Origin: Nitrososphaeria archaeon
GTDB taxonomy: Archaea > Thermoproteota > Nitrososphaeria > JACIWG01
Length of the DNA stretch: 64,000 nt
Assembly (NCBI GenBank): GCA_029776065.1
Contig: JARVJP010000011.1
Span: 24,662 to 88,661, forward strand
Reading direction: 5' to 3'
Part shown: positions 33,467-54,455 of the stretch, in pieces
Layout: every line of letters starts with the position of its first letter
Position numbering within the stretch: the first letter of the stretch is position 1
Notes under the pieces: model-generated
The model's database searches: none
Seen by the model: only the letters and a program-made list of their open reading frames with translations
What the model was told of the DNA's origin: nothing
Made by a program: the position numbers and the translations under genes

Positions 33467-34618
33467 ATGGTTCACCAGCGTAGCATAATACTCTCTTCTC
33501 TGCTCACGGATCTCTTCTTCTTCGGGCTCTTTATCAGCCTATTTGGGCCATCTAATATAAAGATGATGGAAGAATTTGATGTGGATTTTGCGACTATAGG
33601 TTTAGTCGTATCCGCTCAGTCACTAGGTACCGTGCTCTGCTTCTTTACAGGTGCTATCTCTGATAAGTATGGTCATTATAATGTTGTGAGATTGAGCCTA
33701 CTTGTTTTAGGCGTATTCACAATTCTAATGGGCGTCTCTCCTAGCATATCTTTTTTGATCCTGTTTTCTTTTGTTATAGGAATTGCTTTTGGAATGTTTA
33801 ACACCTCATTTAACCCCGTTATATTTGACCTCTATCCTGATGAGAAGTTTAAGATGTTAAATCTTGTTTTAGTTTCTTTTGGCATAGGCATTGTGTTCGG
33901 TCCAGCCATTATTGCCGGTATGATTTCTTTTTTTGGAAATTGGAGAATAGGCTATATCCTCTTCGGTCTGTTATTGGTGGTTGTTGCGATATTCGAGCTT
34001 ATGATAAAGACTCAAAGTGGAGGGAGCTCAAAGGTAAGTCGAGGGCAAATGCACTTTGACCGGCCTTTCCTATTGCTTCTTGCATGTATGTTCTTTTTCT
34101 ATCTTTTCGCTACTGGGATTACATCATGGATTCCAACTTATATTGTAAAAACTAACAAAGTTGAATACTTAGAAGCAGGCGTAGTTCTAAGCTGTTTTTG
34201 GTTGGTAGTCACTTTAACGAGGCTCTACTCCTGGAAGATAACAAAAGTTTTAGGGCAAGAGAAGGTCATCACATGCCTATCTCTTTTAGGATTCTGTGCC
34301 GGGTTGTTATCTGTATTCTGTACTGGTTTCATATCGAATCTGATTGTGTGGGGGTTAATGGGATTGGCTTTCGCACTGGTATACCCATCGGTTATCTCTA
34401 TTGCACATAGTAATTATCAAAACTCGCCAGGTAAAGCGATTGGTAGACTTATCTCCCTTGGTAGTGTAGGTGCATTTGTTTCAGCGCCCATGATAGGTTT
34501 GATAGCTAATTTTACAAGTGCTGATATTGCAACCTTGGTAATCCCATTTTCAAGTCTTATCGTCGCTATACTATTCTTTAAGCTGAGCCATCTAAAAAAC
34601 TTTAAGTCAAGACATTAA
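33467..34618 (+). CDS. MFS transporter (fucose/TsgA-like)
   Basis: GAISDKYG motif; 12 TM. Confidence 0.88.
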   Translation: MVHQRSIILSSLLTDLFFFGLFISLFGPSNIKMMEEFDVDFATIGLVVSAQSLGTVLCFFTGAISDKYGHYNVVRLSLLVLGVFTILMGVSPSISFLILFSFVIGIAFGMFNTSFNPVIFDLYPDEKFKMLNLVLVSFGIGIVFGPAIIAGMISFFGNWRIGYILFGLLLVVVAIFELMIKTQSGGSSKVSRGQMHFDRPFLLLLACMFFFYLFATGITSWIPTYIVKTNKVEYLEAGVVLSCFWLVVTLTRLYSWKITKVLGQEKVITCLSLLGFCAGLLSVFCTGFISNLIVWGLMGLAFALVYPSVISIAHSNYQNSPGKAIGRLISLGSVGAFVSAPMIGLIANFTSADIATLVIPFSSLIVAILFFKLSHLKNFKSRH

Positions 34619-34729
34619 TGTACAATAAAACCTTCGCGAGACGGATCGCATTATTTCTTTGTTGTTATGGATCGCAACGCTAATTGTTGTTTAGATAAAT
34701 TTATATATTGCTTACATCAATGTTATTAC

Positions 34730-34932
34730 ACTGTCATAACAAGCCTGTGCGACCCCAGCAGGCTCAACCCGCCTATCCAACACCAATCCATCTCCTAAGA
34801 TGGCAGTCTTGGCCGAGGCCAAGGTGTAGCAAAGCTGCATGCTTTAGGAAATGTTCCTAGAGCGCAGAACTGTCTGTTTAAACCTTGGTTCGGCCAAGCT
34901 AGGAGATGTTTATTAGATATGGTTAAGTTTTT
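34730..34932 (+). ncRNA. Candidate structured ncRNA of unknown family
   Basis: TATA TTTATATA 34700-34707; nested long-range stems 34789-34797/34900-34908 and 34808-34824/34883-34898 enclosing three hairpins; G-U wobbles favour the + strand; T-run at 34928-34932; no ORF. Confidence 0.7.
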
Positions 34933-35059
34933 GTGTAGTGGTACAACTACGTTTAACAGATTTACTTGGCTGTTATCAAGTTTTGATTAACACCGAGTTA
35001 TCCAAACTTTTATATCCACCTTCTAAAGTGTATAAAATCAAGTTGAGGTGTGATGAATT

Positions 35060-36121
35060 ATGGGGAAGAAAGGGGTAAGTAATTTAATTGTGGTTGTGTT
35101 AATTATATTTGTTCTAGCTTTTAGTCTATTATCTGTTTATCTGCTCGCACAAATTAATCCTTTACAGAACCAGATTAACGGCCTTCTTGCGGAGAGGGAC
35201 GACTTAAGCTCTAGACTTTCTTTACTTAATTCAAAAAATGATGAATTGATCAAGGAAAACGAACATTTGAAGAGTAGTGTTGAATTAGGTGACAAGGAGG
35301 TTGAGTCACTTAAAAAGCAAGTTAATGAACTATATTCTCAAATACAAATATTAAATCAAGAGAAAAGTGATCTCCAAGAGAAATATAGTATGTTACGTTA
35401 TGAAATGGATAAGGTAAATCTTTCATATTCTCGATTCAAAGCATTTCTATTATCGTATTCTACTTGGAACCTCAATTACACTTTTAAAAGGGTCTTCGAT
35501 GACAAGGAAATCTTATCTTTAAAAAGTTTACTTCTTGCAAAAGTGCTTACCACTACGAATGATCCATGGAGAAGTTTTCAAGATATATATAATTGGATCA
35601 CTAAAAATATAAAGTACGTATATGATGAGCCATTTCCCGTTCCCCCAAGTTTTAACGAACTAGTTAATGAGATTGTACAAAATGAAACTGTGCTTGATTC
35701 GATAATGGCTCCGAGCGAGTCTCTCAAGTTGATGCAAGGTGACTGCGATGATCAATCGATTCTTTCGTATGCTATGATAAAATCGTATGAAGCTTATGTT
35801 CTTGGTAAAGAATACAGGAAATGGTTGATGGTTATCTACTTTAACGACGACTCTGGTCACATGTGTTTAGCTATCCCTGTCTTAGGAGATGGTGGAAAAA
35901 CGGAATTAACAATATTAGATCCAGCTGGCCACTACCTTACTAACAAGTTAGGGGTTATAACTTCAAAGGAGCCCCTCAGTGAATTGAATAATTACAGCTC
36001 ATACTGGTCAAGCCATAGGGGTATTAAAACTATAGAATTATATCGGGTAGAAGGTAACGTTGCTTATTTGGACATCAGCGGCAGTATATCCGATGTTGCT
36101 GACTTTATTGGAAGTATCTAA
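35060..36121 (+). CDS. Transglutaminase-like cysteine protease with a class III (pilin-type) signal peptide and coiled coil
   Basis: MGKKG|VSNLIVVVL, heptad region, and GDCDD / GHM / LDP catalytic triad. Confidence 0.82.
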   Translation: MGKKGVSNLIVVVLIIFVLAFSLLSVYLLAQINPLQNQINGLLAERDDLSSRLSLLNSKNDELIKENEHLKSSVELGDKEVESLKKQVNELYSQIQILNQEKSDLQEKYSMLRYEMDKVNLSYSRFKAFLLSYSTWNLNYTFKRVFDDKEILSLKSLLLAKVLTTTNDPWRSFQDIYNWITKNIKYVYDEPFPVPPSFNELVNEIVQNETVLDSIMAPSESLKLMQGDCDDQSILSYAMIKSYEAYVLGKEYRKWLMVIYFNDDSGHMCLAIPVLGDGGKTELTILDPAGHYLTNKLGVITSKEPLSELNNYSSYWSSHRGIKTIELYRVEGNVAYLDISGSISDVADFIGSI

Positions 36122-36126
36122 AGCCC

Positions 36127-37563
36127 TTATCCCAAACCCTTTTCAGATTTTTCCTTCCACTTCATAATTAACCATTGTTCTTTTCCTTCTTTTGTCTTAA
36201 ACTTTAATAGTTGATAAGCCCCGTGTAATCTATCACCTTTAAGCCTAAACTTTATCTGCCCCTCTTTTTTCTTTATCAGTTCATATTCTCCACGGTCCCA
36301 TATTGTAACCTTTCCAGCGCCGTACTCCCCCTCCGGTATTGAATTAGATACTAGCATAGAACCAGCAAAATAGTTATTGTTTTCTTCCACTTGTATGTCG
36401 TACATTTTTTGGCTTCGAATTTTTTGTTTTGGAGCTTTTTCAATTGAAGCTATTTTCACCGGTATTACACCCTCTTTACCTTTTTCATATTTCCATTCTA
36501 ATTTACATGGTTTAAGATATGTTTTGTAACGAAGTTCTGGCAAAATGTAATGATCTACTAATGTGAGGAATCTCATAGAACTTATTTTGTCTAAGTGAAT
36601 GAAATACATATTACCACCTTTTTTCCTATTTTTACGGTAAACTTTAGCATTTATTTGCCATTTCTTTCTTAGGAATTCCACAATTAGACTGTTCTCCTCT
36701 TTTGTGAAACCCTGTGTAGAAAATTCGACATATTTATTCCAAAGATATCCATCATCCATATACCAAATCGCTAATCCACGCTCGTCCAAAAGCAAAAGTA
36801 TTTCTTCACTTAATATTTTTACTTTATTTCTATAAAATTTAGGATAAATATCAACTAGAGCAATATGTGTGAAACGAAAACTCCATGAATTAGAGCTCTT
36901 TCTTTTATGGGTCTTTGTATAGGGAGCAAGTACATTTCTTATGAATTCTAAATAGCTTTTTTGGTTACCGCTATTGGTAAGTTGATAACAAGGAATTTTT
37001 GTTCCTTTTTGAAGTTCAAGATGAGCGTCTCCTAACAAAGTCCCTATTAAAACTTGAAATTGCTCCTCACTCCACTTCATTCCAGGAACAAAAATACTAT
37101 CTCCAACTTTTAATTCCTTGGCAAGTTTAATGCCATTGGGAGTAAATATTTTATGATTATGTGTAACAGTAATTATACGTCTTCCACCATATTGGCCAGG
37201 TATTCTTATTCTTAAGAAATTAGTTGTTTTGCCGTTGCAAAACCAGTTTATGATCGGTTTCCACTCCAATTGATATGTTTTGAAATTATAAGAAAGACAT
37301 TTTATCTTCTTTTTTTCTTTAACTATATTACCTATATTTAAACTACCTTCTTCTGTTATAACTTTTGTATAAAATTCAAAACAACCTTCAAAATCTCCAT
37401 ATTCCAAGGGGTGATCTTCAACTTTAATCGCCAATCTTCTTATGCCATAGCTTTCAGGCACTCCCTTTGGGACTGCCCAGGACTTTAATACGCCATCAAC
37501 TTCTATTCTGAAGTCGAAATGATGCGTAGACGCCCAATGTTCATGGACAACGAATTTTGGCAT
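36127..37563 (-). CDS. Stand-alone LigD 3'-phosphoesterase (PE) domain interrupted by an intein
   Basis: Extein motifs FVVHEH..HFDFR, LKSWAVPKG, RLAIKVEDHPLEY, then SIPEGEYGAG and WDRG; the spliced product would be 131 aa. Confidence 0.92.
   Translation of the reverse strand: MPKFVVHEHWASTHHFDFRIEVDGVLKSWAVPKGVPESYGIRRLAIKVEDHPLEYGDFEGCFEFYTKVITEEGSLNIGNIVKEKKKIKCLSYNFKTYQLEWKPIINWFCNGKTTNFLRIRIPGQYGGRRIITVTHNHKIFTPNGIKLAKELKVGDSIFVPGMKWSEEQFQVLIGTLLGDAHLELQKGTKIPCYQLTNSGNQKSYLEFIRNVLAPYTKTHKRKSSNSWSFRFTHIALVDIYPKFYRNKVKILSEEILLLLDERGLAIWYMDDGYLWNKYVEFSTQGFTKEENSLIVEFLRKKWQINAKVYRKNRKKGGNMYFIHLDKISSMRFLTLVDHYILPELRYKTYLKPCKLEWKYEKGKEGVIPVKIASIEKAPKQKIRSQKMYDIQVEENNNYFAGSMLVSNSIPEGEYGAGKVTIWDRGEYELIKKKEGQIKFRLKGDRLHGAYQLLKFKTKEGKEQWLIMKWKEKSEKGLG
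36343..37383 (-). mobile_element. Intein with LAGLIDADG homing endonuclease (347 aa)
   Basis: Starts at C61 (CFEFYTKV); block B VTHNHKIF; LIGTLLGDA and LAIWYMDDG; block F YDIQVEENNNYFA; ends VSN before a +1 Ser; visibly AT-richer than its flanks. Confidence 0.93.
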
Positions 37564-54381: not shown

Positions 54382-54455
54382 GGGCCTGTAGCTCAGCCAG
54401 GTAGAGCATCGGACTTTTAATCCGAGGGTCGAGGGTCCGAATCCCCCCAGGCCCG
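54382..54455 (+). tRNA. tRNA-Lys (anticodon TTT), intron-less, CCA not encoded
   Basis: Acceptor GGGCCTG/CAGGCCC, D-arm GCTC/GAGC, anticodon arm TCGGA-CTTTTAA-TCCGA, T-arm GAGGG-TCCGAAT-CCCCC. Confidence 0.95.

Follow-up and report, generated by a model that had tools for sequence, protein, structure and literature searches.

A candidate lineage-restricted gene for a structured RNA between an MFS gene and a DUF553 gene of a Nitrososphaeria archaeon

We found that an intergenic block in the 64,000-nucleotide stretch of Nitrososphaeria DNA that was analysed (the window) is best read as a lineage-restricted gene for a structured small RNA (sRNA) of about 180–200 nt, which would run on the plus strand from about position 34730 to 34910–34932. 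No other non-coding stretch of the genome folds as strongly as the block once GC is corrected for, and its promoter is of the textbook kind; for these reasons it is a promising representative of a possible new RNA family in archaea. A stand-alone plus-strand gene for a structured RNA is, in our judgement, likely; the joint claim that the gene is real and that its RNA acts via the 5' region is evenly balanced. On the best reading, the candidate stands for a new family of structured sRNAs in archaea that is restricted to one genus. To our knowledge, very few structured ncRNAs beyond the universal ones have been described for Nitrososphaeria, and a literature search surfaced no description of such an RNA from this lineage, although one may have been published. 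The general importance of the candidate is reduced by its confinement to one genus, which also keeps the present comparative data from pointing to a function.

A preliminary description of the block, made from its letters, had proposed a novel archaeal ncRNA or RNA switch with a possible pseudoknot. The ncRNA is the part that is best supported, by the lack of an Rfam match, the single copy, the promoter and oligo-T signals, the extreme folding and the conservation in one close relative. No positive support was obtained for the switch or for the pseudoknot, which we regard on the basis of modelling as possible.

Locus, transcription signals and predicted fold

The block lies between an upstream MFS gene and a downstream gene (35060–36121) for a transglutaminase-like DUF553 protein, both co-oriented with it. 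The surrounding 22 kb encodes functions of ordinary metabolism and transport (MFS transporters, glutamate dehydrogenase, radical-SAM enzymes, aldolase and enolase-superfamily proteins), as well as a Na/Ca exchanger and a LigD phosphoesterase with an intein, and contains no mobile-element genes. The TATA box and the T5 run named in the preliminary description, and all coordinates and pairings given there, are present in the sequence (Table 1). The hexamer that abuts the TATA box was called BRE-like on RNWAAW, which we take to be the BRE consensus. The combination RNWAAW+TTTATATA occurs at six sites on the two strands of the 1.74-Mb genome, including that at 34694–34707, and at none within a same-strand ORF. 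Three of the six are no more than 60 nt from an ORF start; the site at the RNA block is 360 nt from the next ORF of at least 80 aa. The transcription start site (TSS) was derived from the TATA position by what we take to be the established archaeal TATA-to-start spacing, and it coincides with the first base of an 8-nt segment complementary to the asymmetric bulge of the fold.

Table 1. Predicted features of the candidate RNA gene and variable positions inside the RNA; the promoter and the terminator are sequence readings
Feature	Position	Strand	Description
Archaeal promoter	34694..34707	+	BRE-like GATAAA (34694-34699) abutting TATA box TTTATATA (34700-34707)
Predicted 5' end	34730..34741	+	TSS at about 34730, C/A pyrimidine-purine step, about 27 nt from TATA centre
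5' hairpin	34742..34764	+	7 bp (34742-34748/34758-34764, one U.G), 9-nt C-rich loop; MFE and centroid
Single-stranded linker, C/A-rich, G-poor	34765..34788	+	Unpaired in MFE and centroid
Outer stem 5' arm	34789..34797	+	Pairs with 34900-34908 (9 bp); anti-Shine-Dalgarno-like
Asymmetric bulge	34798..34807	+	10 nt against 1 nt opposite (34899), between outer and inner stem
Inner stem 5' arm	34808..34824	+	Pairs with 34883-34898; palindromic itself; one bulged G at 34817/34818
Four-way junction cap	34825..34876	+	Hairpins 34825-34839 (triloop), 34841-34863 (10 bp, triloop), 34865-34876 (4 bp, tetraloop)
Junction linker	34877..34882	+	MFE
Inner stem 3' arm	34883..34898	+	MFE
Outer stem 3' arm	34900..34908	+	MFE
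3' tail, unstructured	34909..34932	+	Ends in T5 run (34928-34932), probable archaeal terminator
Variant A>G	34821		Inner stem 5' arm; A-U to G.U on plus strand; would be A.C on minus strand
Variant A>G	34828		Cap hairpin; A-U to G.U on plus strand; would be A.C on minus strand
Variant T>C	34840		Unpaired junction nucleotide
Variant A>G, or deleted in X4	34851		Unpaired triloop nucleotide
Variant A>G	34849		Cap hairpin; A-U to G.U on plus strand; would be A.C on minus strand
Variant G>C in X3	34824		Terminal inner-stem pair broken; no listed compensation at 34883

Between the T5 run and the DUF553 gene there is a poorly conserved spacer of 127 nt, and the DUF553 gene has TATA-like boxes and a Shine-Dalgarno sequence of its own. 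As far as such signals can be read from the letters, BRE/TATA and the oligo-T end are placed with only the RNA block to transcribe, and the minus strand of the block has no promoter or T-run comparable to those of the plus strand. This arrangement bears on a different reading, namely that the block is a cis element, either a leader or attenuator (thermosensor, riboswitch-like) of the DUF553 gene or a 3' element of the MFS mRNA. In favour of such an element are the common orientation with both neighbours and the gene order, which is kept in relatives. However, the T5 run, the variable spacer and the separate signals of the DUF553 gene stand between the block and the role of a leader, and T-rich tracts that follow the MFS stop, together with an MFS-RNA spacer that cannot be aligned in relatives, speak against a 3' element. 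Taken with the evidence on folding, orthologues and variants given below, a cis element appears very unlikely. The riboswitch and cis leader class, whose members lie in the 5' UTR of the gene they regulate and have a conserved aptamer and an expression platform, was rejected on the same T5 run, spacer and TATA-like boxes, on the lack of an Rfam match and on an orthologue of the DUF553 gene, in genome G003, that is without the element.

As had been described, the block is GC-richer than its surroundings (0.47–0.53 vs 0.31–0.38 in the flanking spacers and 0.40 in the genome); this corresponds to only about the 97–99th percentile of 120-nt windows and is less striking than the folding. The term "ORF-free" was too loose, since three ORFs of 42–50 aa overlap the block, at 34667–34798 (+), 34708–34860 (+) and 34712–34840 (−), but none of them has a Pfam match at E≤0.1. 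These ORFs are also the ground for supposing a small protein gene, which would leave the extreme folding unexplained.

The fold that had been claimed (hairpin, outer and inner stems, three cap hairpins) was recovered by ViennaRNA RNAfold, unguided. For 34728–34915 on the plus strand (188 nt) the minimum free energy (MFE) was −72.7 kcal/mol (z −5.57), and none of 200 dinucleotide shuffles was as low; the centroid was nearly the same as the MFE structure, and a longer version of 211 nt gave z −4.78. The MFE structure contains 54 pairs, and each of its five non-Watson-Crick pairs is a G.U on the plus strand. In the overall architecture, a 5' hairpin is followed by a C/A-rich single strand (unpaired, as had been noted; one G in the 34 nt of 34765–34798), a long interrupted rod and a three-hairpin cap. 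The 5' arm of the outer stem matches the 3' end of the organism's own 16S rRNA in 7 of 8 letters, and its 3' arm (34900–34908) resembles a Shine-Dalgarno sequence plus AUG, with a 6-codon mini-ORF at 34906–34926. The rod is still the MFE structure at 60°C and persists at 75°C (−25.5 kcal/mol) and 85°C (−14.6 kcal/mol) with shifted cap and outer pairings.

In a scan of all 180-nt windows outside ORFs of at least 90 aa (n=2334, both strands, energy regressed on GC), the block ranked first of 2334, with the most negative GC-corrected residual (z −4.7), above the windows of the rRNA operon and the SRP RNA. The top-ranked window folds at −70.7 kcal/mol on the plus and −49.2 kcal/mol on the minus strand. 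For the minus strand of the block, an MFE of −71.3 kcal/mol is nearly equal in raw energy to that of the plus strand, but its z was only −3.43 and 2 of 200 shuffles were as low.

The near equality of the two strands in raw energy is one of several observations that would fit a DNA-level feature or relic, i.e. paired palindromic protein-binding sites or the remnant of an inserted element with imperfect direct repeats. Also, each inner-stem arm is a palindrome, and the two arms repeat one and the same palindrome in direct orientation at a distance of about 75 bp; the block is flanked by imperfect direct repeats (34685–34697/34907–34919, 11 of 13 positions; 34674–34693/34893–34912, 70%), and the element is confined to one genus. 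Short two-copy repeats of this kind are, however, common by chance, and operators would explain neither the other four hairpins nor the dedicated promoter. The G.U pairs and the A>G variants would be mismatches in DNA. A relic of a mobile element is further opposed by the lack of terminal inverted repeats at the block ends and of mobile genes nearby, by the single copy and by the lack of a match in phages, plasmids or viral contigs. We consider a DNA-level origin of the signal quite unlikely.

Two mutually exclusive folds had also been proposed. Both inner-stem arms are palindromic and 34788–34793 can pair with 34798–34803, so that a fold of local hairpins does exist, but at −56.1 kcal/mol (span limit 30) it is 16.6 kcal/mol weaker than the rod at 37°C; this difference counts against both the switch and the cis element, for which the existence of two folds and the sequestering of the SD-like sequence plus AUG in the outer stem would otherwise speak. 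The local-hairpin fold is predicted to be a co-transcriptional intermediate. The complementarity of the bulge at 34800–34807 to the 5' end at 34730–34737 was confirmed (8 bp, −9.6 kcal/mol). This helix would cross the outer stem and form a true pseudoknot, and both partners are invariant in X3, one of the close relatives; a helix as good was reached by 81 of 2000 shuffles of the unpaired segments (about 4%). With these elements one may picture a riboregulator in which the outer stem is a mimic of a Shine-Dalgarno/anti-SD helix and the RNA switches between rod and local hairpins when triggered by heat or a factor. Such a rearrangement would be permitted by the palindromic arms together with the pairing of 5' end and bulge, and toggling would bare either an anti-SD mimic capturing ribosome-binding sites of mRNAs or an SD mimic engaging the 3' end of 16S rRNA. 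If true, the RNA would be a regulator of translation, or a ribosome decoy, gated by temperature, of which we know no described counterpart in archaea; we regard this as a highly improbable scenario.

Known RNA classes and occurrence of the element

The 4227 covariance models of Rfam 15 were applied to the whole window at gathering scores and to 34600–35060 at E≤10 with lax filters. A strong Rfam hit had been named beforehand as what would make the RNA a known one. At gathering score nothing in the 64-kb window fell on the block, and the sole match was a tRNA-Lys at 54382–54455. At E≤10, the region 34600–35060 had one match of 17.2 bits, to an unstructured vertebrate lncRNA model with a gathering score of 55, which we attribute to chance. 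The preliminary description had found no hallmarks of tRNA, SRP RNA, RNase P RNA, hammerhead ribozymes or C/D sRNAs, and Rfam, ARAGORN and the motif search agree.

RNase P RNA (C3:224867-225147, 187 bits), SRP RNA (C3:267793-268102, 114 bits) and 5S rRNA (C3:256298-256417) were each rejected, as the genome's copies are located elsewhere, all on a contig other than that of the block. For tRNA, including intron-bearing and permuted forms, ARAGORN reported only the tRNA-Lys in the window and the tRNA model had no match at E≤10; the loops of the cap hairpins are 3–4 nt, and neither a 7-nt T-loop nor a 3-nt/4-bp/3-nt bulge-helix-bulge is present. Box C/D sRNAs carry a C box (RUGAUGA) and a D box (CUGA) near their ends, and RTGATGA, TGATG and CTGA are absent from both strands of 34728–34935. 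Hallmarks of box H/ACA sRNAs are an ACA/ANA box placed directly after the lower stem, a K-turn or K-loop within the upper one and, in the hairpin, a two-sided pseudouridylation pocket. The internal loop of the candidate (10 nt vs 1 nt) is not a two-sided pocket, ACA occurs only at 34728, 34739 and 34780 and never directly 3' of a stem, and a tandem G.A motif beside a 3-nt bulge was not found. Small self-cleaving ribozymes (hammerhead, hairpin, twister, pistol, hatchet, HDV-like) gave no Rfam match at E≤10, and a CUGANGA core is lacking. As judged by covariance models and motifs, the block is a member of no catalogued RNA family tested. A trans-acting base-pairing sRNA would have its own transcript, an accessible seed, a complementary and conserved target site and an effect on that target; the block may belong to this class, as it has promoter and terminator signals and a single-stranded tract that is invariant in X3, but the best predicted target site, described below, is only marginally better than shuffles.

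The block is present once in the 1.74-Mb assembly (one blastn match and one covariance model match), and blastn-short of the RNA against its own genome found no recurrence longer than 14 nt elsewhere. A MITE had been the other reading named in advance, to be recognized by dispersed copies with target-site duplications; with one genomic copy by both methods, no terminal inverted repeats at the block ends and weak flanking direct repeats, this reading fails.

Searches of other genomes gave a consistent picture. Among 41 genomes, only the organism's own was matched by blastn. In the family, which makes up the whole order, a covariance model matched 1 of 10 genomes (the own genome, and 0 of 9 others); it also matched 1 of 151 genomes of the phylum and 2 of 151 genomes of the class. 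The model was built from a single sequence and is weak for fast-evolving RNAs, and these results read as "not found", not as "absent". The second class match was a 50-nt partial hairpin in genome G035 with the same 19 specified letters. It was rejected as a homologue, being at chance level (at two or fewer mismatches the pattern occurs at 14 places in 13 other genomes of 401, vs 8 for a reversed control), with no rod domain adjoining and no Rfam match. GTDB-representative contigs contained no match to a 32-mer or a 20-mer pattern. In JGI metagenome contigs a 20-mer had six matches, all in contigs of 65–73% GC with only 20–23 nt shared and none fitting the model. Similarly, viral contigs had no match to a 21-mer and 31 matches to a 17-mer, none of which fitted the model, and phage and plasmid collections had no match by blastn at distant settings.

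We also looked beside orthologues of the flanking genes, using the covariance model with filters off. No element accompanied the downstream-gene orthologues in G003, G007, G001 and G008 or the MFS-gene orthologues in G003, G006 and G004. In other genera of the family the flanking-gene orthologues are 42–48% identical and not adjacent to each other. For example, the G003 orthologue of the downstream gene (48% identical) has a 77-nt upstream spacer without the element, which also argues against a cis element. Because the RNA was not found in nine other genomes of the family and the flanking orthologues in other genera occur without it, it is either young or fast-evolving, and its restriction to one genus is the best reading of these searches.

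Sequence variation among close relatives

The search for relatives proposed in the preliminary description yielded nothing beyond the own genome among genomes of the family, class and phylum, but metagenome contigs of runs X2 (sediment), X3 (hot spring) and X4 (sediment), from three other studies, carry the locus. It is also carried by run X1, a metagenome labelled hot springs, which may be the sample that the analysed DNA came from and is not counted among the relatives. The X2–X4 contigs are 89–97% identical to the locus and jointly span the 3' end of the MFS gene, the RNA block and the start of the DUF553 gene, so that the order MFS-RNA-DUF553 is conserved. The spacer at 34600–34673 is unalignable in X2 and also diverges in X3 and X4, with loose ends at 34599 and 34676. 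The alignment with X2–X4 resumes at 34674, 34676 and 34693, i.e. at BRE/TATA.

In X3, the promoter and RNA (34693–34905) differ at 6 of 213 nt. The MFS and DUF553 coding pieces of the same relative differ at 14 of 178, 11 of 121 and 6 of 62 nt (31 of 361 in total), and the downstream region 34878–35077 at 22 of 200 nt plus two gaps. The block is thus several-fold better conserved than the flanking coding DNA in X3 (Fisher p=0.0075 vs the coding flanks; p=0.0013 vs all other pieces). This holds for X3 only, as X2 (21 differences in 293 nt across the block) and X4 (26 in 333 nt) have no fewer differences there than in their own flanks.

Of the 69 variable places, 40 are listed, and most block differences of X2 and X4 fall outside the listed set. 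Five of the six block differences of X3 are listed (34708, 34709, 34824, 34849 and 34851), so X3 has at most one difference in 34710–34823, a segment that comprises the 5' end, hairpin, linker, outer arm, bulge and most of the inner 5' arm. Positions 34708 and 34709, between TATA and start, differ in all of X2, X3 and X4. Among the listed places, no variant of X2–X4 falls in the promoter (34694–34707) or in the 5' hairpin (34742–34764).

Inside the RNA, the six listed variable places (Table 1) comprise three changes from A-U to G.U, two at unpaired nucleotides and one that breaks a helix-terminal pair. No compensatory double base-pair change occurs among the listed variants, which include four paired-site changes. 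On these numbers the pattern fits both the fold and the plus strand without amounting to statistical proof.

One-base deletions were present at 34922–34924 in X2, X3 and X4. They indicate that the 3' tail is free to vary and destroy the 6-codon mini-ORF, and a mini-ORF that is frameshifted behind the SD-like arm in three of three relatives is a further point against a cis element. Together with the deletion at 34851, they also argue against the overlapping small ORFs. The X4 deletion lies inside the ORF at 34708–34860, one ORF begins in the spacer that is unalignable in relatives, and the listed variants show no 3-nt periodicity. A small protein gene, suggested by the presence of the three ORFs, is therefore extremely improbable.

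Possible mode of action and comparison with known systems

In the mechanism that we propose for a stand-alone RNA, the 3' rod with its three-hairpin cap would form a thermostable body in which structure-neutral changes are tolerated. The working surface would be the invariant 5' part, i.e. the 5' end, the C-rich hairpin loop, the C/A-rich linker and the anti-Shine-Dalgarno-like CAUCUCCU. We infer this division into a recognition surface and a stable body, the latter fitting a hot habitat, from the fact that the cap tolerates neutral substitutions and a loop deletion, as against a sequence that is kept throughout the 5' half, unpaired parts included. The 5' surface would most likely base-pair in trans with G-rich ribosome-binding regions of mRNAs, protein binding being less likely, and the 5' arm of the outer stem would pair with a canonical Shine-Dalgarno sequence. 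In the favoured fold the 9-bp outer stem hides this anti-SD-like arm, a point against pairing in trans.

Duplex energies were calculated over 2680 ORF-start windows of the own genome. The best predicted site belongs to the gene that starts at C14:48911 and encodes a membrane protein of 331 aa (−37.6 kcal/mol), with 15 bp across the Shine-Dalgarno sequence and 7 bp at +8 to +15. The best of 12 shuffled tracts reached −36.8 kcal/mol, in a control that is weak since shuffling destroys the SD-complementary motif. With so small a margin this gene is no clear outlier and may be taken as a lead only.

The RNA could instead be real and act by binding protein, as a scaffold within an RNP or as a decoy that soaks up an RNA-binding protein; the site bound would be the C/A-rich strand, the four-way junction or the rod. 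The long near-perfect helix, the defined asymmetric bulge and the compact junction would suit such a function, and a 5' half that is invariant in X3, single strand included, could be kept for a protein as well. Besides, there is no convincing antisense target, since nothing longer than 14 nt is found in the genome and the best duplex barely beats shuffles. On the other hand, the motif search and inspection of the fold gave neither a K-turn nor C/D, H/ACA or any other element known to bind protein, no candidate for a partner gene is located nearby, orthologues of the MFS and transglutaminase-like neighbours occur without the RNA, and the cap hairpins vary among relatives. We consider a scaffold or decoy unlikely and continue with base pairing via the 5' region as the preferred mode of action.

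Four known systems offer a comparison. With MITEs and palindromic intergenic repeats the block shares the compact, hairpin-rich intergenic form and short flanking direct repeats; unlike them, it occurs once in the genome and in none of nine other genomes of the family, has no terminal inverted repeats and carries a promoter. Bacterial 6S RNA, a rod-like regulator of RNA polymerase of about 180 nt, is similar in length and is also a mostly double-stranded rod with an asymmetric interruption. However, the candidate has no large central bubble resembling an open promoter, its 5' 60 nt lie outside the rod, and no Rfam 6S match was found; we know of no archaeal 6S RNA. The Hgc ncRNAs reportedly described by Klein et al. 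in 2002 from GC-rich islands of the AT-rich hyperthermophiles Methanocaldococcus and Pyrococcus resemble the candidate in being GC-richer, strongly folding islands in an AT-rich thermophile genome, with their own promoter and no assigned function, and the candidate came to notice in the way that those RNAs reportedly did. They differ from it in that HgcC, HgcE, HgcF and HgcG gave no match at E≤10, the GC contrast here is modest (0.50–0.53 vs 0.40) and the architecture is different.

The fourth system is sRNA162 of Methanosarcina mazei, a trans-acting sRNA whose unstructured linker, according to the account given in a review, masks a ribosome-binding site (Babski et al. 2014, PMC4152357). As far as that account goes, the candidate differs in having no sequence or structural homology to sRNA162 and a far larger 3' domain (rod and four-way junction), and in that its anti-SD-like stretch belongs to a helix of the favoured fold; phylum and lifestyle differ as well, and the pairing here is predicted. 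Within the same account, the two are alike in their intergenic location, in their own transcription (predicted here) and in a single-stranded linker between folded domains, which is the working part of sRNA162. In the candidate this linker is G-poor, leads from the 5' hairpin to the 3' domain and runs into the anti-SD-like sequence. If our inference about the 5' region is right, the RNA would work in trans in the manner of sRNA162 and archaeal sRNAs of its type, as these are portrayed in the review.

Sequences surrounding the RNA block

We found that the promoter and the predicted structured RNA were bracketed by two pairs of imperfect direct repeats, and that the start of the first repeat copy was the point where the close relatives from sequencing runs X2 and X4 become alignable. 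These repeats may have arisen by chance or may represent an insertion scar. Besides, a short-word search of the whole genome detected a perfect 13-nt complement of positions 34788–34800 (the 5' arm of the outer stem and the beginning of the bulge) inside the downstream DUF553 gene, which is probably a chance match because its genome-wide E-value was 4.2. A nearby gene for a LigD-type 3'-phosphoesterase was split by an intein that carries a homing-endonuclease domain of the LAGLIDADG type; its Pfam matches were LigD_N in two separate stretches, Intein_splicing and LAGLIDADG_2.

A similar hairpin in another family

In G035, a genome from another family of the same class, 19 of 21 positions of one hairpin were identical to the 5' hairpin of the RNA block. 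It was located in a 163-nt spacer that precedes a 212-aa ORF, and no adjoining rod domain was found. This hairpin was rejected as a homologue, its similarity being at chance level in a scan that allowed mismatches and used the reversed pattern as a control.

Other candidate loci in the genome

After ORFs of at least 90 aa had been masked, several other stretches of the genome (L022, L024, L025–L027 and L033) also folded strongly, and none had an Rfam match at E≤0.01. They may be additional RNAs that have not been catalogued; alternatively, they may be small genes that escaped the ORF mask. With regard to promoters, the studied BRE+TATA site and one of the five other full consensus sites had no ORF of at least 80 aa within 150 nt downstream, and this second site could mark another non-coding gene.

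Location of features in the window, the organism's genome (G000) and G035
Feature	Location	Strand	Detail
Direct repeat, longer pair	window 34674-34693, 34893-34912		70% over 20 nt
Direct repeat, shorter pair	window 34685-34697, 34907-34919		11/13 identical
Complement in DUF553 gene	window 35880-35892		
Intein-bearing gene	window 36127-37563	-	
Similar hairpin	G035:C26:271196-271216		L016 1515-1535
Folding stretch L022	G000 C10:330960-331160	+	-79.4 kcal/mol per 200 nt
Folding stretch L024	G000 C10:376280-376480	+	-72.0 kcal/mol per 200 nt
BRE+TATA site	G000 C8:25341	-	
BRE+TATA site	G000 C10:288403	-	
BRE+TATA site	G000 C3:235943	+	
BRE+TATA site	G000 C3:292250	+	
BRE+TATA site	G000 C3:8502	-
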